IMG/VR virus record: IMGVR_UViG_3300022932_000014
Coordinates: 1-29,637 of that record
Length of the DNA stretch: 29,637 bases
Origin: a virus
Direction: 5' to 3' (one strand)
The position numbers and the translations under genes are program-made. Positions within the stretch are counted from its first letter, which is position 1. The number at the start of each line of letters is the position of its first letter. Below are positions 4,673-12,625 of this stretch, in pieces. Under the pieces are notes generated by a model. That model was not told the origin of the DNA, searched no databases, and saw only the letters and a program-made list of their open reading frames with translations.

Positions 4673-7600
4673 TTAAGTTCTTTGAGCGCCTCCAAAACGT
4701 TTCTTTTTAGCTTGGACATTGAATTTTTGTAAAGTTTTCTTTGCATCTAATAATCTTTGATACTCGTCTTGTGGACTTGCGCTGTAATTAGTAGCTAAAT
4801 CTAAATTAGTCATAGCAACTCCATCAGGTGTATACCTAGCATTGTCATACATGGAGTTTATTAGGTTTACAGAGTTTACAGTGTTATAATTACCTAAATT
4901 TACTTTTTGAGCAGTATTATAATAATTTCTAAGATTCTGTTGAGTTATTGCATCAGCTTTTAATATTCTACCTTCATAACTTAATAAATCACTAGCTCTT
5001 GCGTCTTCCTCTCTGGCTTGTATTTGTGCATTTGCTGCATTGGCCTGAAATGTAGAGGCTTGATTTTGTCCTGCGACTTGACCCATTACATTATTTAATT
5101 GAGCTTGTGTATTAGCCTGTACTTGTGCTATTGCCGAGGCTCTTTGCGCGTCTGGCAAACTATTTAAACTCTCTATTGTTGAAGCTTCTTGCCTTCTAAT
5201 TTCATTAACTTGTGCATCAGGTGAAACTAATGGTGCTTCAATTCTATCATATCTCCTATTTATTTTTAGAGCCCCTTGTAAACTATCTGGCAATAAAGGA
5301 CTTTGATCAGGTAAATTTAGTAATCCCAGTGTATTTATTTCCTGATTATTTGCTGTAAATGATGGAAGTTTATTGGTTGGAGAAGGTTTGGTTGCCAGAG
5401 GTCTTGAATCAGGTGTTACTTCTGCAATTCCATAATCAGCTGATGTATCTCCAATAAGACCTTCAATGTTATCTAAATTTTTAATACTAGGAGCAGAAAG
5501 TTTAGCTCTTAAAGGTGAGTTTTTTAGTTGTTTAACTGTTAATATTCCATTGTCGGCCAATAACTGTTTTTCTTCTGGTGTTACTAAGTTAATTTGCATT
5601 GAATATCTTCCAGAAGTAAAATTACCTAATTTTTCATCATACCCTCTAATAGCTCTAGACTGATCTGTTTCTCCTGTTGTATCTGGTAAAAAAGTCTCTT
5701 CTGTTAAATATCTTTGAGCTTCTTTAACTGCATCTGAATTAAAGTTATTAGGGTTATTTATAATAGTTTGAGCTGAGTCTTTCATATTCTCATCTATCAA
5801 TCTTTGCACATTCCCTACAATTTCAGATTGTTTGTTTAAAGGTACATTCCCTTTTAACTTTACATTCCCTTTTGAGTCAACTGTTATCAATTGTTTAAAT
5901 CCAGGATCAGAATTAATAATATTTGGAAAATTATTATACAGATTTTGAAGAGCTTCTTGTGACTTAACTACTCCATATGCCTCTTGATTAGCTGATTGTT
6001 GTTCTCTAATATTTTTACTGTAAGGATTTAAGTTACTAGTTACATTGGCTGTTCTATTTCCTCCGTTTTGAAATTCATAAAGTAATTCTTTTACTTTTTC
6101 TTGTGGAAGACTATATTTTTTAGAATATTCTATAATCATATCTCCATTATAAAGGCCTCCATTTTGCATAATGGGTTTTGTAATTTCCTCTGCATTATGA
6201 CCTACTTTAGAATCTTCTTGTAAATTAAATACTTCATCAAAAAAGCTTTTACGTGCTTCTATTATAGGTAATTTCTCTTGCTCTAATTCTTGAAATTCTT
6301 CAGTTAGGAAATTTACGTTAATTCTAATTGTATCTTCTAAGTTTGGATTATGTAATAATTTATCTGCTTGTTTTTGAAGTTTTGAGGCTATGTCCTCTTG
6401 TTCTTTAATAATTTTATCAAGCCCTGTTTTTCTGTTGAATTTGTCAATTACATCTGCATAAGTGTTTGTAGACTTAACCCCTAAATCATATTCTTCATTA
6501 AATTTTTTAGCGCCGTCTTTACCTATTTTTAAATGGTCGGAAATAATTTGAGAGTCTTCTGGTAATTGTTCTGCTGTAAGTTCAATACCTCCTTTTTCAT
6601 GAGTAGCCCCTAATGCTTTTTGAATTGTCCCATCAGGTTTTTTTATGTACTCATCTTTTTCTATTTCGGCAACTTTTTCTCCTTCTGGAGTTTCAGCTAC
6701 ATATTCCCCTGTTGCTACCTTATTTTCGTCTTTTTTTTTTAATCTTCCCCCGTCTTTCATAAATGCTTGAGGCTCTTGAACAGGCGGTGCTTGTCCTTGT
6801 TGTAAGGTAGAAACCATTTCTTGAAGAGCAGCTTGCTGTTGGTCTGGTGGTAATTGTTGTAGTTCAGCCATTATTGCTTGTGGGTCTTGGCCTGTAGATT
6901 CTGCAAAAGCTATTACAATATCTTCTGGACTAGGGGTTGATTGCTGCCCGCCTTCCTGAAAATATCCACCTATTTGTAAAGACTGAGTTGCAGGTACAGA
7001 AGCTTGTCTTGCTTTCTGTTGATACTCATTTAAAATATTTTGTCTTCTATTGGCCGTACCTAATCCTGAAACAAGATTTCTTCCTAATCCTGTTGCTAAT
7101 TTAGTTGCTGAGACTCCGATATCAAAAGCATTTCCTGTTCCGATACCTTGGCCTAATTTATAAGCTGCGCTAGGAATATCGAAGCCTCCATATGGGTTAA
7201 AATAAGAAAAATTTTCTGTTACATTTGGTGTTTGAGTAGGCGTTTGTAGTGGGTTTCCATTCATGTCGTATTGATCTCTTTGATCTACAACACCATCTCC
7301 ATTATTATCCCCTTGAATATACTCTGATCCTGTATCTTGGACTCCATAAGTATTAGGAGCTGTAATTTGAGGTGGAGTAGAATATGGTGATAGTTCATTA
7401 GGATTGTAGGTAAATCCATTATTTGTAGTATTTGGTAGAGTATATTGTTGAGCTAATTGATTAGAGTAAGTACCAAATTCATTGGTGTCAAACTGATTTG
7501 TTGTTGGTGGTTGCAGTGTTATTGGTTGTGGAGTATACCCTATATTACTAGGCGCTGTAAAATTTCCTCCTATTTGTTTGTTTTTTTGATTCCACATTGA

Positions 7601-7729
7601 ATAAGCAATGGCAATTGCCTGATCTTGTTTATAACCTTCATCTGAAAGTGTTTTTATCTTGTCAGAAATCCATTCCTGTTTAGAATTACCACCATCTTTA
7701 TATCTATTATTTTTTATTCTTCTTTCCAT
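4673..7729 (-). CDS. crAss-like cargo/internal virion protein, 1018 aa, with repeated (Q/K)xGG motifs
   Basis: Contains AEIEKDE...GATHEKGG...IISDHLK, a block I recognise from crAss-like cargo proteins. Also Q/P/T-rich linkers and Q/A-rich coiled coil. ATG directly abuts the upstream TAA. Confidence 0.7.
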   Translation of the reverse strand: MERRIKNNRYKDGGNSKQEWISDKIKTLSDEGYKQDQAIAIAYSMWNQKNKQIGGNFTAPSNIGYTPQPITLQPPTTNQFDTNEFGTYSNQLAQQYTLPNTTNNGFTYNPNELSPYSTPPQITAPNTYGVQDTGSEYIQGDNNGDGVVDQRDQYDMNGNPLQTPTQTPNVTENFSYFNPYGGFDIPSAAYKLGQGIGTGNAFDIGVSATKLATGLGRNLVSGLGTANRRQNILNEYQQKARQASVPATQSLQIGGYFQEGGQQSTPSPEDIVIAFAESTGQDPQAIMAELQQLPPDQQQAALQEMVSTLQQGQAPPVQEPQAFMKDGGRLKKKDENKVATGEYVAETPEGEKVAEIEKDEYIKKPDGTIQKALGATHEKGGIELTAEQLPEDSQIISDHLKIGKDGAKKFNEEYDLGVKSTNTYADVIDKFNRKTGLDKIIKEQEDIASKLQKQADKLLHNPNLEDTIRINVNFLTEEFQELEQEKLPIIEARKSFFDEVFNLQEDSKVGHNAEEITKPIMQNGGLYNGDMIIEYSKKYSLPQEKVKELLYEFQNGGNRTANVTSNLNPYSKNIREQQSANQEAYGVVKSQEALQNLYNNFPNIINSDPGFKQLITVDSKGNVKLKGNVPLNKQSEIVGNVQRLIDENMKDSAQTIINNPNNFNSDAVKEAQRYLTEETFLPDTTGETDQSRAIRGYDEKLGNFTSGRYSMQINLVTPEEKQLLADNGILTVKQLKNSPLRAKLSAPSIKNLDNIEGLIGDTSADYGIAEVTPDSRPLATKPSPTNKLPSFTANNQEINTLGLLNLPDQSPLLPDSLQGALKINRRYDRIEAPLVSPDAQVNEIRRQEASTIESLNSLPDAQRASAIAQVQANTQAQLNNVMGQVAGQNQASTFQANAANAQIQAREEDARASDLLSYEGRILKADAITQQNLRNYYNTAQKVNLGNYNTVNSVNLINSMYDNARYTPDGVAMTNLDLATNYSASPQDEYQRLLDAKKTLQKFNVQAKKKRFGGAQRT

Positions 7730-10294
7730 TTATGAAAATCTTTTATTTTTAGTTCTTTTTAACTGTGGGGTTTCGTGTATTACTTTACCTTTGAATTGAT
7801 ACTCTTGATTAGGATACATCATTTGTTGATTTCCATATTCATCTACACCCAAAATAGGGTAATTGACATTTTTCATCGTAATTAATCCTGAATCAGTTGG
7901 GACAATAACTTCTTGTTGAGGATAATCATAAACACCATTCGGGCTTATAGGAATATTCCCACCATTTTGTGCGTAAACAGCACTAGTTTCTTGGTTGTTT
8001 TGAGCTATTGTATTTATGGCTTTTACTATTTTATCATCATCATAAGCCTTGTAAAATATCTCTTCATCTAGGCCTTTTTCTTTGACCATTTGTTGAAGTT
8101 GTTTTATATCTACTTTTTGTCCTGGTTTTAAACCTAAGTTTTGTCTAAACATGTGAAAATTACCATATGTTTCTTCAGGATGTGATAAGTACTCTCTATC
8201 TCTTTTAAATGTCCCTTTCTGTTGGTTATTTACATCTCCTAAAACTCTTTGTAGCGCTGGTGCAACTACAGCATCTATATTGGAGGCATGGCTAAGTTCA
8301 TGACCTAAAACACTTCTCATATTAGGCGCTTTAGAATATGGAGTGGATTCTCTTTGTCTTTGATATAGTATCTCTCCTGTTTTTTCATTTGTACCTCTAT
8401 TACTAGTTTGCTGAAAATATGGACTAGTATACAAAGCGTCTGCTCCTATTTTAGACAAGTATCCAATATCTTCATTAGTTTCCGCCTCTCTTATTGGAGT
8501 TCTTAACCCTTTACCAATAAAATCTTGAAGCCTATTAGCATCTAAACCTGTGTTCTTAGAAAATTTTTCTTTAGTGGCTGGATCAGAATACCAATTAATA
8601 AAATCTTGAGAAGCTTGTTGCTCAACTAATTTATCTCTCTTTAGGGGTTTATCTGTAGGTTTTACTGTTCTTACATAATTTGTTTCTCCTTGGTTTAAGG
8701 AACTGTTTATTTTAATTACATCAGATAATTTTCTTTTATCGTTATTATCCTCTATTAAAACTTTAGGTATAATGTTAACCAGCCCTGTTTGTCCAAATAC
8801 TGATGACAGAGCTCCTCCATTTTGTCCATAAATTAAATTATTATCTTCATTTTGCGCTACATTATTCATTAAATATATAATAGCTTCGTCTGAATAAACA
8901 CTTTGTAATCTATCTTTAGTGGCAGATTTTTTAGTTCTTTTAAACATCTCTGGAGTAAAATCTTGCTTTCCTGCATCATAAACACCTTCTCTTTTAAGTA
9001 GGTATCTGAACGCATCTAAATCTGCTTTGTTTTCTCCTGGAATTAAATCATGTTCAGGGATATTTTTATCTTTTTTATGATAATTAGTAAGCCTTCTTAT
9101 ATCTGTCTTATTAAACCTGTCTTCTGGAAATAAACTAGTAGTGGCATGTGATCTCTCGTGAGTCTCTATTTCCTCAGATGTTGGTTGAGTTGCATTTGGA
9201 TAAACATCTCTATGAGTATCAATATTATATTTAGAATCTAATTGTATTTTCTTTGTAAATGGACTGTAATAACTGCCTCTTTCACCTTCTTCTTGTTTTT
9301 TACCTAATAATGACTGTATTACATTTGGTGCTGGTGGAGCTTTATATGGAAAAACTTCAGGGTTTGTTCCTACTAATCTTCTTTTTATTTCACCCTCAAC
9401 ATCTTCATAACCGCTATTTTTTAAACGTTCTCTATATTTAGGCGAGTTAAGGTATTCTAGAGTGAATTGCTTTGGTGTTATTGGATTAGCGTTATTCATA
9501 GGAAGATCATAAATACCTCCTCTTTGAAAGTATTGCTCTTGATTATAGATATCTTCTTGTTGTACTTGGTTAGGATCAACATACTGTACTTGGGAAGCTA
9601 CTAATAAATCTTGTATGAATCTTTGTTGATTAATTTGTTCTTGCTGTTTACTGTTTAACTCTTCTTTGGCCTTTTTTACGGCTTCTGTTTCATTTTCTGG
9701 CGCTAAGGTAGGTATATCTATAATGGAAACCAAATTACTTACTTCTGGTGTGTATGTAATAGGTATTTCATTAGTAGGTGGCGTATAACTGTCTATTGCT
9801 CTTTGTGCTGTTCCTTTTAAAAACTGTTGTTGGTCTAACTCTGTGAGGGAACTGCCTGATAATTTTTTATAAGTGTTTAATACTAAGTTTTGTCTTTTAG
9901 TATCAGCATGAAATTTTACTTTTGGCCTCTCATAATCATCTGATACAATTCTACCTGTATTATAAACACCTTGCGCTGTTCTTAACTTATCTCCTGCTTT
10001 TTTATGAGTATTATTTAATTCCCAATTTACAAAATCTAATTGGTTGTCTAAATCTGTCCAATTTGATCCGTATTTATTTTGTAAGGCCTCTAATCTTCCA
10101 CTGTGCCACTGCGCGATACCTTTTGATCCTTTTGTATCCGCTGTTCCTAATATAGTAGTATTCAGATTACTTTCTCTTATCAAATTACCCACAATACCTG
10201 CTGCTTGGTCAGGAGTCCATCCATAACTAAGCATTTTCTTATAGGCGTATTCTTCTTTGTTTTGTTGCTTTATTTTATCTTTTATTAGCACCAT
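7730..10294 (-). CDS. Virion protein: phage tail lysozyme (Phage_lysozyme2-like) + two HExxH zincin-like domains + small C-terminal domain
   Basis: N-terminal AAGIVGNLIRES...GIAQWHSGR...QLDFVNWEL...YERP. HERSH (9146-9160) and HELSH (8288-8302), each with a downstream Glu. TAATG overlap with the upstream gene. Confidence 0.8.
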   Translation of the reverse strand: MVLIKDKIKQQNKEEYAYKKMLSYGWTPDQAAGIVGNLIRESNLNTTILGTADTKGSKGIAQWHSGRLEALQNKYGSNWTDLDNQLDFVNWELNNTHKKAGDKLRTAQGVYNTGRIVSDDYERPKVKFHADTKRQNLVLNTYKKLSGSSLTELDQQQFLKGTAQRAIDSYTPPTNEIPITYTPEVSNLVSIIDIPTLAPENETEAVKKAKEELNSKQQEQINQQRFIQDLLVASQVQYVDPNQVQQEDIYNQEQYFQRGGIYDLPMNNANPITPKQFTLEYLNSPKYRERLKNSGYEDVEGEIKRRLVGTNPEVFPYKAPPAPNVIQSLLGKKQEEGERGSYYSPFTKKIQLDSKYNIDTHRDVYPNATQPTSEEIETHERSHATTSLFPEDRFNKTDIRRLTNYHKKDKNIPEHDLIPGENKADLDAFRYLLKREGVYDAGKQDFTPEMFKRTKKSATKDRLQSVYSDEAIIYLMNNVAQNEDNNLIYGQNGGALSSVFGQTGLVNIIPKVLIEDNNDKRKLSDVIKINSSLNQGETNYVRTVKPTDKPLKRDKLVEQQASQDFINWYSDPATKEKFSKNTGLDANRLQDFIGKGLRTPIREAETNEDIGYLSKIGADALYTSPYFQQTSNRGTNEKTGEILYQRQRESTPYSKAPNMRSVLGHELSHASNIDAVVAPALQRVLGDVNNQQKGTFKRDREYLSHPEETYGNFHMFRQNLGLKPGQKVDIKQLQQMVKEKGLDEEIFYKAYDDDKIVKAINTIAQNNQETSAVYAQNGGNIPISPNGVYDYPQQEVIVPTDSGLITMKNVNYPILGVDEYGNQQMMYPNQEYQFKGKVIHETPQLKRTKNKRFS

Positions 10295-11049
10295 TAGTCT
10301 GTTATTTCTACTTGATAATTTATTAAAGCTTCATATGTTTTTGGAGCTAATTTAGGTTTCCATATTTCGGCAACTTCTTTTATGTGTGTCTCTTTGGCTA
10401 CTTTGTAAGCCTGAAATGCTTCTTCAGGGGTGTTGAACATACCTAAGTGAATTAGTTTATTCTCTACTCTAATCTTAGCGTCAAATCTTCCGTTTCTTCT
10501 ACTTACACCTAAAGGTAGTTCCCCTCTGCAAGATTGCCTTTTTGTCAGTAGTTTATTTATCTCTAAAGGCACAAAACAGCAATTTTCAGGAGAATATATT
10601 TTATTTCCTTTTATAAGTACATCTTTATCTAAATGCCATCCTTCCATATGAGGTTTCCAATTTTCTTCATACCATTTTGCAAAGTTTTGGAAATTGTGCC
10701 ATTCTGAATTAACACTACATCCAATGTAAGTGGGATATTTTTTATGTAATTTATCATCATAGCTTCTCTGTAATGCAGACCCCCAAGATTTATAATACTT
10801 TGTCACTACACCATCTATAATAGACTTATAATCCCCCTCTCCCATATATCCAACTCCATAGACATTTTTTAAATATGGATTTTTAATTGAACCACTTTTA
10901 ATATTTGTATAAGTTCTATTATATAATATATACTTTTCGTTAACTATTATTGTGCAATTACGCGCACTGATATAATCAATTATTCTAACAGATTCACATT
11001 GGTTGGATATGTGAATTTCTCCAACCCTTTCTTTTTTCTTTGATTTCAT
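10294..11049 (-). CDS. Free-standing putative homing endonuclease (HNH-related domain + AP2-like C-terminus), copy 1
   Basis: VYGVGY...EWHNFQNFAKW...LDKDVLIKGNKIYSPENCCFVP..IN, followed by GVS...F.AKI...HLGMFNTPEEAFQAY (AP2-like). Confidence 0.75.
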   Translation of the reverse strand: MKSKKKERVGEIHISNQCESVRIIDYISARNCTIIVNEKYILYNRTYTNIKSGSIKNPYLKNVYGVGYMGEGDYKSIIDGVVTKYYKSWGSALQRSYDDKLHKKYPTYIGCSVNSEWHNFQNFAKWYEENWKPHMEGWHLDKDVLIKGNKIYSPENCCFVPLEINKLLTKRQSCRGELPLGVSRRNGRFDAKIRVENKLIHLGMFNTPEEAFQAYKVAKETHIKEVAEIWKPKLAPKTYEALINYQVEITD

Positions 11050-11065
11050 TTATAAATTATTTGTC

Positions 11066-11097
11066 CAAAGATATAATTTTATTTTGATATATGCAAC
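11066..11097 (-). promoter_or_regulatory. Bacteroidota-type promoter for endonuclease copy 1
   Basis: GTTG-N20-TATCTTTG, 16 nt upstream of ATG 11049. Confidence 0.75.
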
Positions 11098-12038
11098 TAT
11101 TGCTCTAAATTTACTTTTGAACTTAAAAGATTAATTGCATATCTAAGTCTTGTCTCTATTGACTGTTCTAACCTAATTGTGAATACATTGCTGCGGAGAG
11201 GTTCAAGAACATTCTTGCCACTAAATTTTACAATATCTGTATTAATTGTTTTATTTATTTGATTTTTATCCCAAATCCAAGTAGGCTGGTTAGCCTTATG
11301 AGAGAGCATCCTATTATAAAAATAATTAGTAGTATACTCACTTCCCACCTTCGTCACAAGTACTTCTTGATACGAACCATCTTTTGCGGTAATAGGATAT
11401 TTAGAAATAAATGATAATTGACCTGTATTTGGTACAAGTCTTAGTTCTCCTGAATTGGTAAACGGTGAGTAAATCCACATCTTATTAAAAGGCTTATCAT
11501 CTATTTGAGCTGAATCATAGGCATTGTGATACCTACTCACTTCCATTTCAAAACCAACTGTTTTTAACAGTATTTCTCCATATTCTCGTTTCAGCATGTA
11601 TTCAACTAAGAATGGATACTTTTTACCGTAAAATACTTGATAACTTCTATTAGTTAGTAAGTGTGACCACAATCCTAATTCTGTTGAGTCTGTACTTTGG
11701 TTTATTCCTGTTTGGAAATAATTTTGGTGAGGGATGTAATAGTTTGGAGTGTAACTGTAAAACCCTACCCACTTTTGCTCTATGGGAGAAAATGCGATCG
11801 TCCAGCTAACGTCTTCAAAATAGTTAGGATCTGTCACTGAAACAGGTGTTTTTACTTTTTCAATTGTTGGCTCAACGCTCTCAGTACAAGAACATACTGC
11901 ATTTCCATTTGGGAGTATTATTGTTTCACACCCATCATCGCATACAATATCATTTATAACTACTGTGCAGTTACAATATACTATTCCTTCTATTGTTTGT
12001 TGAGAGCATGTCTCATTTGGACAATTACATGTTGCCAT
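11097..12038 (-). CDS. C-terminal part of the tail stabilisation/muzzle protein, encoded as a separate ORF (313 aa)
   Basis: Start moved to ATG 12038 (MATCNCPNETC), 2 nt after the endonuclease stop. FEDVSWTIAFS...WVGFYSYTPNYY...LWSH...FYGKKYPFLVEY matches what I recall following the GYD...ITKKDY block in crAss-like muzzle proteins. Confidence 0.7.
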   Translation of the reverse strand: MATCNCPNETCSQQTIEGIVYCNCTVVINDIVCDDGCETIILPNGNAVCSCTESVEPTIEKVKTPVSVTDPNYFEDVSWTIAFSPIEQKWVGFYSYTPNYYIPHQNYFQTGINQSTDSTELGLWSHLLTNRSYQVFYGKKYPFLVEYMLKREYGEILLKTVGFEMEVSRYHNAYDSAQIDDKPFNKMWIYSPFTNSGELRLVPNTGQLSFISKYPITAKDGSYQEVLVTKVGSEYTTNYFYNRMLSHKANQPTWIWDKNQINKTINTDIVKFSGKNVLEPLRSNVFTIRLEQSIETRLRYAINLLSSKVNLEQ

Positions 12039-12040
12039 AG

Positions 12041-12625
12041 TTAATCGGTTATTTCTACTTGGTAGTTTATTAATGCTGAATAGCATGCTTCTGTAATCTT
12101 ACTGCGCCATTTATATGCAATCTCTTTAATATAAATTTCTTTGGCGATCTTGTATACTTGGAAAGCTTCTTCAGGAGTATTAAATATTCCTAAATGATCT
12201 CTATCTTTACCAAATCTGGCTCTAAATTTTTTACCTGATTTTGTAACACCTATTGGATATTTTCCTCTTGATTTTCCGCTTTTTATAAATAAACTATTAA
12301 TTTCAAGTGGAACTAGACAACATGCTTCGGGAGAGTAAATTCTATTACCTTTTATTAAAATATCTTTATCTAAAGCCCAACCCAACATTTTTTCAACTGT
12401 ATACCTTTTTTCAAACCATTTTGCGAAGTTTTGAAAATTGTGCCATTCTTGATGTACTTCACATTTAATATAAGAAGGTTTCGTTTTATGGTATTTGGGG
12501 TCATAACACCTTTGTAACATACTTTGCCATATCTTGTAAGACTTATTAGAACTAATATACTTACCTATCCCTCTATATCCAACACCATATACAGAAGGTT
12601 TTAATCTGTGATCAATCTCAATCAT
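12041..12625 (-). CDS. Free-standing putative homing endonuclease (HNH-related + AP2-like), copy 2
   Basis: WQSMLQRCY...EWHNFQNFAKW...LDKDILIKGNRIYSPEACCLVP..IN...HLGIFNTPEEAF. Ends in ALINYQVEITD exactly like copy 1. Confidence 0.75.
   Translation of the reverse strand: MIEIDHRLKPSVYGVGYRGIGKYISSNKSYKIWQSMLQRCYDPKYHKTKPSYIKCEVHQEWHNFQNFAKWFEKRYTVEKMLGWALDKDILIKGNRIYSPEACCLVPLEINSLFIKSGKSRGKYPIGVTKSGKKFRARFGKDRDHLGIFNTPEEAFQVYKIAKEIYIKEIAYKWRSKITEACYSALINYQVEITD

Follow-up and report, generated by a model that had tools for sequence, protein, structure and literature searches.

Two adjacent genes for predicted modular virion proteins

We analysed the first 29.6 kb (29,637 nucleotides; hereafter the window) of the complete 143,127-bp IMG/VR virus record IMGVR_UViG_3300022932_000014. 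All large open reading frames (ORFs) of the window lie on the minus strand and form a virion gene block. Two neighbouring genes of this block encode the proteins P0001 (854 amino acids; 7730..10294) and P0002 (1018 amino acids; 4673..7729). The ATG of P0002 directly adjoins the stop codon of P0001, with no gap between them (7730/7729). In both proteins a short peptide of the type (Tyr/Phe/Met)-(Gln, less often Lys)-x-Gly-Gly recurs ahead of the modules. This peptide, called the tag below, is real and conserved. It is apparently previously undescribed; a literature search found no published description of the motif or of the processing of such cargo. The features located below in window coordinates are all on the minus strand.

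P0001 is a modular, enzyme-carrying virion protein, as judged from its ORF, Pfam matches, PHROG tail families and an AlphaFold2 model. Its first module is a lysozyme (residues 14-143; 9866..10255), which matched Pfam PF18013 (Phage_lysozyme2, 1e-28) and the structure of phi29 gp13 (3csq_A; Z 15.6, root mean square deviation 2.6, 137 aligned residues); in the model, the lysozyme fold spans residues 1-160. Zincin module 1 (residues 270-481; 8852..9487) contains the HExxH sequence HERSH (residues 379-383; nucleotides 9146-9160) and was modelled with a predicted local distance difference test (pLDDT) score of 80-95. Over residues 272-481 its fold matched, in VIA-align, the M13 peptidases Zmp1, neprilysin and PepO (Z ~7.2), lethal factor (6.3) and PPEP (5.7), all of them middling Z scores. 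Zincin-like module 2 (residues 555-765; 8000..8632) carries a second HExxH sequence, HELSH (residues 665-669; nucleotides 8288-8302). It was modelled with lower confidence, gave a weak Pfam match to Peptidase_M91 (residues 631-672, E 0.022) and shows internal similarity to module 1. The protein ends in a beta domain (residues 781-846; 7757..7954), recognized by its strands in the model (pLDDT 78-92). The order lysozyme, zincin 1, zincin 2 and C-terminal domain, which the initial annotation had proposed, was backed by Pfam, the AlphaFold2 model and the fold search.

P0002 is a putative modular, non-enzymatic virion protein that matched phrog_36695 (virion structural protein, 3e-78). Its homologue gp41 of phage phi17:2 is annotated as a virion structural protein, and gp41 and gp42 together as virion or tail proteins. 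A conserved beta module with a long helix covers residues 330-509 (6203..6742; pLDDT 76-93). Foldseek found no match for the P0002 model at E<=0.001, and the matches in VIA-align were generic helical hairpins only. Among 27 diverse phages, E355, E357 and E360 (Glu-x-Glu-x-x-Glu), H377 (within THExGG) and S397 of the beta module are invariant, and D398 is conserved in at least 90%. By its conservation, this Glu/His/Ser set looks like a possible catalytic or metal site. The sequence THEKGG, which is not a tag, is predicted to be buried inside the confidently modelled fold. We dropped a reading of this module as an M23 Gly-Gly endopeptidase: in the homologue P0052, the M23 domain (605-694) lies apart from its SHEEGG (258). 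Cysteine is essentially absent from the P0002 family (0.0%; 48 proteins of ~1100 amino acids each), and His and Trp are very rare.

From gene order, the virion annotation of relatives and the analogy to phage crAss001, both P0001 and P0002 are probably ejected cargo.

A conserved Gly-Gly peptide ahead of the modules

P0001 contains exactly three Gly-Gly (GG) dipeptides, and each belongs to a tag. Tag 1, YFQRGG (residues 255-260; 9515..9532, GG codons 9515-9520), lies at the lysozyme/zincin 1 junction in a linker of pLDDT<50 (residues 234-269). Tag 2, YGQNGG (residues 489-494; 8813..8830, GG codons 8813-8818), follows zincin 1 within a segment of equally low score (482-521). Tag 3, YAQNGG (residues 774-779; 7958..7975, GG codons 7958-7963), precedes the C-terminal beta domain (low-score segment 766-780).

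In P0002, seven of the ten GG sites fit the pattern [QK]xGG (residues 13, 54, 254, 260, 327, 524 and 556), and a terminal KRFGG at 1013 is similar. A basic N-terminal leader (residues 1-14; 7688..7729) ends in YKDGG. KQIGG (residues 51-55; 7565..7579) comes next, and the tandem pair LQIGG and YFQEGG (residues 251-261; 6947..6979), which follows the family consensus, lies in a segment of pLDDT<50 (244-265). MKDGG (residues 324-328; 6746..6760) stands directly before the conserved beta module, at a point where the gene is split in other phages. Two further tags, MQNGG (residues 521-525; 6155..6169) and FQNGG (residues 553-557; 6059..6073; family consensus), again lie in segments of pLDDT<50 (510-530 and 552-590). 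The basic C-terminal tail (residues 1010-1018; 4676..4702) consists of KRFGG and four more residues; KKRFGG followed by two to four mostly basic residues is the conserved C-terminus of most P0002 family members. A translation check reproduced all the sites that the initial annotation had listed in the two proteins, as well as its count of no fitting site among the nine GG dipeptides of a 2233-amino-acid protein of the same block. It had not mentioned two K-type sites in the 894-amino-acid protein encoded next to P0002 (KNGG at 571 and KKGG at 839).

The motif is not a product of amino acid composition. A genome-wide census of 209 ORFs yielded 144 GG sites. The pattern QxGG occurred at 8 of the 13 GG sites in P0001 and P0002 versus 1 of 131 elsewhere (Fisher p = 3e-9). 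For [QK]xGG the figures were 10 of 13 and 14 of 131 (p = 5e-7). No shuffle among 20,000 that preserved composition reached eight QxGG or ten [QK]xGG sites, and binomial tests with local composition gave p ~1e-3 for P0001 alone and for P0002 alone. KxGG by itself occurs at background frequency elsewhere in the genome, including the two sites of the 894-amino-acid protein, so the specific signal is an aromatic residue or Met at P5-P6, Gln at P4 and Gly-Gly (counted back from the second Gly as P1). The enrichment, including its persistence against composition-matched controls, thus bears out the initial annotation.

The motif keeps its position in about 100 homologues and is carried by 52 homologues of P0002 and by more than 55 true relatives of P0001, as alignments of both families showed. 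In 47 P0001 homologues, Q257, G259 and G260 of tag 1 and G778 of tag 3 are conserved in at least 90%. In 39 P0002 homologues, Q52 is invariant, and G55, G327, G328, G524 and G525 reach at least 90%. A profile of 539 GG sites from 48 non-redundant P0002 relatives had Tyr, Met or Phe at P5 in 49% and Gln at P4 in 41% (4.7-fold enriched), favoured Asn or Asp at P3 and was nearly uninformative beyond GG. In the P0001 family, GG sites outside the lysozyme fold almost all read [YVI]-[AFG]-Q-[QN]-G-G. Phi17:2 gp41 and gp42 also carry the motif (~35-38% identity). In 32 related loci, QxGG made up 30-32% of the GG sites in the two cargo genes versus 1-6% in flanking virion genes, and GG density was doubled in the P0002-like gene of these viral contigs. 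As a control, lysozyme-bearing tape-measure proteins of unrelated phages, taken through the same search, had random GG contexts.

The [QK]xGG rule of the initial annotation fits P0001 and P0002 but is too narrow, since related lineages have Ala or another residue at the Gln position. In these lineages (three with data) the change apparently affects both genes together, as expected if the tag has a shared reader. Codon usage differs from tag to tag: Gly-Gly is encoded by GGA GGT, GGA GGA, GGT GGG, GGC GGG and others, Gln by CAA or CAG and Asn by AAT or AAC. Selection on the motif therefore acts at the protein level.

All three P0001 tags and all eight P0002 tags, the terminal one included, lie in linkers predicted to be disordered by AlphaFold2 (pLDDT<50). 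Conservation is poor in the linker ahead of a tag but resumes within 0-3 residues past it, where the next module has its conserved start. Each tag hence goes with the module that it precedes.

Homology breakpoints cluster at the tags. In BLAST comparisons of P0001, 29 of 55 high-scoring segment pairs (HSPs) ended within 8 residues of a GG (6.3% expected), and for P0002, 29 of 46 HSPs started within this distance (12.9% expected). At tag 2 of P0001, HSP ends cluster at residues 491-500. Relatives carry SET, SLT, CHAP, YkuD, ART-PolyVal, M23, VanY or one to three zincins between their tags. The motif thus marks module boundaries at which enzyme modules are exchanged, as the initial annotation had supposed.

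Tags are also retained on free-standing modules. At least eight loci as well as several database proteins show the P0002 beta module encoded as a separate gene, with a 20-25-residue leader that ends in FFAEGG or FFQNGG. Many members of both families begin with a basic leader of 10-16 residues ending in YK(N/K/D)GG, and basic GG leaders stand on more than 30 P0002 homologues as well as on part of the P0001 family (MRFKEYKEGG). Elsewhere, the beta domain that closes P0001 is the N-terminal domain of P0002-like proteins (P0029, P0048-51, P0054 and P0026; blastp E 7e-7 to 2e-5). There it continues through a tag into the next module, whereas here the stop/start pair breaks the linker just upstream of the tag. 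The gene boundary slides along a fixed order of modules and is not fixed relative to them.

Some relatives (P0048-P0051 and P0054; loci L022-L037) contain four or five copies of a Gln/Glu-rich three-helix module of ~60 residues. Every copy has YYQ(D/E)GG in front of it and PQ(L/M)(K/R)RGG after it, so that two tag classes alternate in fixed order. We do not claim a UBA-like nature for these modules, the only hint being a marginal match to the UBA region of HOIP (E 0.86).

Gene context and possible roles of the peptide

The closest cultured relatives of the virus are the Cellulophaga phages phi17:2 and phi4:1 (genus Lightbulbvirus, 145 kb), which share its gene order at ~35-38% protein identity. 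The block runs from the giant tail protein of 2233 amino acids, with a split-off tail piece of 329 amino acids, through P0001, P0002 and the 894-amino-acid protein to further giants. Terminase, portal, a 377-amino-acid scaffold-like protein and a 571-amino-acid capsid-like protein are encoded farther along the genome. For the 377-amino-acid gene, which lies between the portal and capsid-like genes, the atlas gave weak hints only, to a scaffolding protein (0.84) and to Prp protease (0.83, at chance level).

A giant protein of 2102 amino acids, encoded downstream of the cargo block (genome positions 131888-138196, minus strand), has an ART-PolyVal ADP-ribosyltransferase domain (residues 100-173, E 1.6e-11). 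Its only two loose matches to the relaxed motif pattern are not GG tags. The 329-amino-acid ORF is flanked by two paralogous HNH endonuclease genes (phrog_953, E 5e-69 and 2e-63; window 10294-12625 and 11097-12086), and this ORF matches the C-terminal end (2051-2278) of the 2289-amino-acid giant tail family of phi17:2 (phrog_37948). Insertion of homing endonuclease genes has thus split the giant tail gene. Another homing endonuclease gene (phrog_559, E 5e-70; genome positions 38598-39935, minus strand) lies in the head block beside the capsid-like gene.

The initial annotation had likened the sites to those cut by the SUMO, adenovirus and African swine fever virus proteases. This comparison found no counterpart in the complete genome: the Pfam models Peptidase_C48, C5, C39, Prok-JAB, ThiF and S78 prohead protease had no match, which leaves room for divergent enzymes. 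Scans of 20 head and tail proteins with PHROG and Pfam likewise showed no protease family. Zincin domains occur in ~70% of the P0001 family and are absent from the whole P0002 family, and more than half of the motif-bearing related loci have no HExxH zincin within 10 kb. With this distribution, zincins make weak candidates for a protease that acts on all tags, and they resemble another exchangeable payload more than the reader. The motif is also absent from the portal, the capsid-like and the scaffold-like protein. Self-cleavage by Asn cyclization at N-G-G was rejected, as P3 is variable (N, D, K, E, I or R). In crAss001, two adjacent genes (41395-43793) are annotated as ThiF (E1-like) and as a metalloprotease-domain protein (gp76 and gp77); ThiF had no match in the present phage.

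Free-standing tagged modules, sliding gene boundaries and the variation of codons and lineages speak against chance, a DNA recombination joint and a simple hinge, and they point to a peptide that is read by another factor. We consider a tag of this general kind, whatever its reader, to be likely (probability about 0.75). The form of it that we tentatively favour, at somewhat less than even odds, is an uncut docking tag. We hypothesize that the tag is a recognition element ahead of each module in two cargo proteins built like beads on a string, which would be packed into the particle and probably ejected. Its aromatic and Gln residues would attach to a site that recurs on a conserved component of the virion, such as the portal, the lining of the tail barrel or the scaffold, and Gly-Gly would provide a pivot, so that the tag would work without being cut. 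In this way every module, whatever its enzyme, could be loaded, held in the cargo space and able to leave in order. A module could carry its tag along when it moves to another protein or gene, and the payload would thereby be swappable.

An uncut tag is favoured by the tag-like element that stands 2-4 residues before the C-terminus, as cleavage so near the end would change little. It is also favoured by the failure of the protease search and by the many loci that lack a zincin. By analogy, the chain of crAss001 gp45 runs through an ordered AFGG (residues 425-428). Several points weigh against docking without cutting. Conservation that lies only N-terminal of an invariant Gly-Gly is typical of protease sites, such as those of adenain and of the SUMO and ubiquitin proteases. 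The short N-terminal leaders resemble propeptides. We infer both the presence of the two proteins in the virion and the putative partner of the tag. Homology between P0002 and gp45 was not established (hhalign E 0.12-0.24; no PDB profile match), which makes the argument from electron cryo-microscopy an analogy only. Finally, the HSP counts and the per-locus counts are not phylogenetically independent, but the breakpoint effect is large even so.

The tags might instead be cutting sites, which we regard as almost as probable as uncut docking. P0001 and P0002 would then be polyproteins, cut at Gly-Gly or beside it while the head matures or once they have been ejected. The products would be individual enzymes and small helical peptides, and the N-terminal leader would be lost, as with the capsid targeting sequence of phage T4 or the ejection proteins of phiKZ and SPN3US. 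The protease would be an unrecognized phage protein, a host enzyme or, in some phages, an embedded zincin. Such a role would suit the asymmetric conservation, which covers P6-P1 only with an invariant GG, and the short N-terminal leaders that end in a tag. It would also suit the predicted accessibility of the sites, in disordered linkers directly before modules, and the interchangeability of gene and tag boundaries. Moreover, the zincins of the P0001 family are of the kind for which autoprocessing of polyvalent proteins has been predicted (sections of PMC5512222), and multi-site processing of ejection proteins has phage precedents (parts of PMC10052503 and PMC5694885). Against cutting stand the lack of matches to the protease families named above, the absence of the motif from the three head proteins and the scarcity of zincins near the motif. 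The gp45 model, as an analogy, and the terminal KRFGG count here as well. In addition, the residue after GG is unconstrained, whereas zincins usually read that side. A tag might also serve for both docking and cutting, as the capsid targeting sequence of T4 does.

That the motif is a passive flexible hinge or a helix stop between domains, with no specific reader, seems improbable. Gly-Gly is flexible, all tags lie in predicted interdomain linkers, and a cargo built like beads on a string has to pass through a narrow channel, as modelled for crAss001. Yet a hinge does not need a conserved aromatic residue or Met and a Gln, and none is required at the free N-terminus of separate modules with 10-25 residues upstream. 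Nor would it change in step in two genes across lineages, and the flanking giant multidomain virion proteins do without the motif. Short shared nucleotide homology that promotes recombination, with the peptide as its by-product, would account for the clustering of breakpoints at the motif. This DNA-level joint is largely refuted and highly improbable: codons differ from copy to copy, shared stretches never extend beyond a few bases, and amino acid classes are conserved across proteins that are only 25-40% identical. Both proteins are rich in Gln (7-9% versus 4% genome-wide), and Gln-rich linkers could contain Gly-Gly by chance. Such an origin is refuted by the shuffles and local-composition tests, by conservation in distant homologues and by the random GG contexts of the control proteins, and we give it practically no weight.

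A bolder version, which we consider rather unlikely, is that the tag is a portable, self-sufficient cargo code, by which any module that follows aromatic-Gln-x-Gly-Gly would enter the particle and later, after a cut at the tag, be set free in the infected cell. Such a code would explain the free shuffling of injected enzymes in a large clade of Bacteroidota phages, including crAss-like phages with variant tags, and it would give a direct handle on the packing and ejection of crassvirus-type cargo.

How podophages of the crAss type select several megadaltons of cargo protein, pack them and eject them is a standing question. The crAss001 structure reveals the positions of some of the cargo but not how it arrives (PMC10172136). 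A six-residue tag that stands ahead of every module, travels with the modules and varies between lineages is a concrete and mutable element, which can be studied in the culturable phages phi17:2 and phi4:1 and which would account for the fast replacement of injected enzymes (lysozyme, peptidases, SET, ART and CHAP). If no partner reads it, the tag is merely a conserved linker habit of modest interest.

Comparison with known systems

Gly-Gly ends the recognition sequence of several protease substrates, namely SUMO (QTGG), ubiquitin (LRGG), adenovirus proteins ((M/L/I)xGG) and the double-glycine leaders of bacteriocins, which are cut by a C39 peptidase. In these substrates recognition lies N-terminal of an invariant Gly-Gly, where conservation of the present tag is also concentrated, and QIGG and QNGG in the present proteins resemble SUMO-type ends. 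The segments before GG are predicted here to be disordered or helical, with no beta-grasp fold, and C48, C5 and ThiF had no match in the genome, which differs from ubiquitin-like proteins and clan CE peptidases. Double-glycine leaders differ in that no C39 domain was found and most tags are internal and repeated. Encapsulin cargo-loading peptides are short and contain Gly, and they dock diverse enzymes inside a shell of the HK97 type. They are usually single and terminal, differ in sequence from the tag and belong to a bacterial compartment, not to a virion.

The capsid targeting sequence of phage T4 is an N-terminal leader of internal proteins that are packaged and injected; it ends in Leu/Ile-x-Glu and is removed by the prohead protease gp21. 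It is N-terminal only, whereas the present tag recurs within the proteins ahead of every module, and the search for a prohead protease gave no match. The cleavage consensus of phiKZ and SPN3US ends in Glu, which is not so for the present tag. As with the tags here, the packaged and ejected proteins of these phages carry a short consensus at several internal positions, according to parts of PMC10052503 and PMC5694885, and SPN3US gp245 is described as an essential prohead protease (PMC10052503, in part). The likeness to phi29 gp13 (morphogenesis protein 1, PDB 3CSQ) concerns the lysozyme module, which has the same fold, and not the tag; both gp13 and P0001 are virion-borne wall-degrading enzymes fused to a peptidase.

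Cargo protein C1 of crAss001, gp45, has been described by Bayfield et al. 2023 (PMC10172136; PDB 7QOG and others). In that phage, the two genes after the giant tail gene encode the cargo proteins C1 and C2, and gene order here is parallel; gp45 is encoded directly after the giant tail gene. Homology of P0001 or P0002 to C1 or C2 was not demonstrable; P0002 profiles missed the gp45 chain among PDB sequences, and no Pfam family was found at E<=0.1. In gp45 as in P0002, the N-terminal leader is basic and ends in GG, and the C-terminal tail is likewise basic and contains GG. Gp45 has a Gly-rich hydrophobic stretch and many aromatic-x-GG sites (AYGG, AFGG and FAYGG), and its motif is an Ala-aromatic variant, whereas that of P0002 is aromatic-Gln. 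Two resolved segments of gp45 (214-245 and 425-552) lie between aromatic-GG sites, and the portal-bound one (425-552) begins at AFGG. As this segment starts exactly at 425-428, the chain continues through AFGG and the motif is ordered. The resemblance between P0002 and gp45 is one of architecture only. The passages of PMC10172136 on gp45 do not mention this motif, nor do the parts of that article covered here mention cleavage, proteolysis or proteases.

A parallel in domain content is with the phage polyvalent proteins of Iyer, Burroughs, Anand, de Souza and Aravind 2017 (PMC5512222), described in sections of that article as having zincin-like metallopeptidase (MPTase) hubs, with processing by the embedded zincins predicted. 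Like P0001, these proteins combine several unrelated enzyme domains in one virion-delivered polypeptide, with frequent HExxH zincins and with architectures that vary among relatives. P0001 has a lysozyme and two HExxH zincin-like modules, and its homologues vary in architecture, with other enzyme modules standing instead of the zincins or alongside them. ART-PolyVal occurs in family members and in the 2102-amino-acid protein of the present genome. Judged by their domains, P0001 and P0002 qualify as phage polyvalent proteins, with virion delivery suggested by the gene block, the PHROG categories 'tail' and 'virion structural' and the annotation of relatives. The tag here also fills P0002, which has neither an enzyme nor a zincin, and it persists in loci that lack a zincin. 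In the parts of PMC5512222 concerned, 'linker' occurs 0 times and 'cleavage site' once, and no junction or cleavage motif is defined, whereas in P0001 and P0002 a defined peptide marks the joints.

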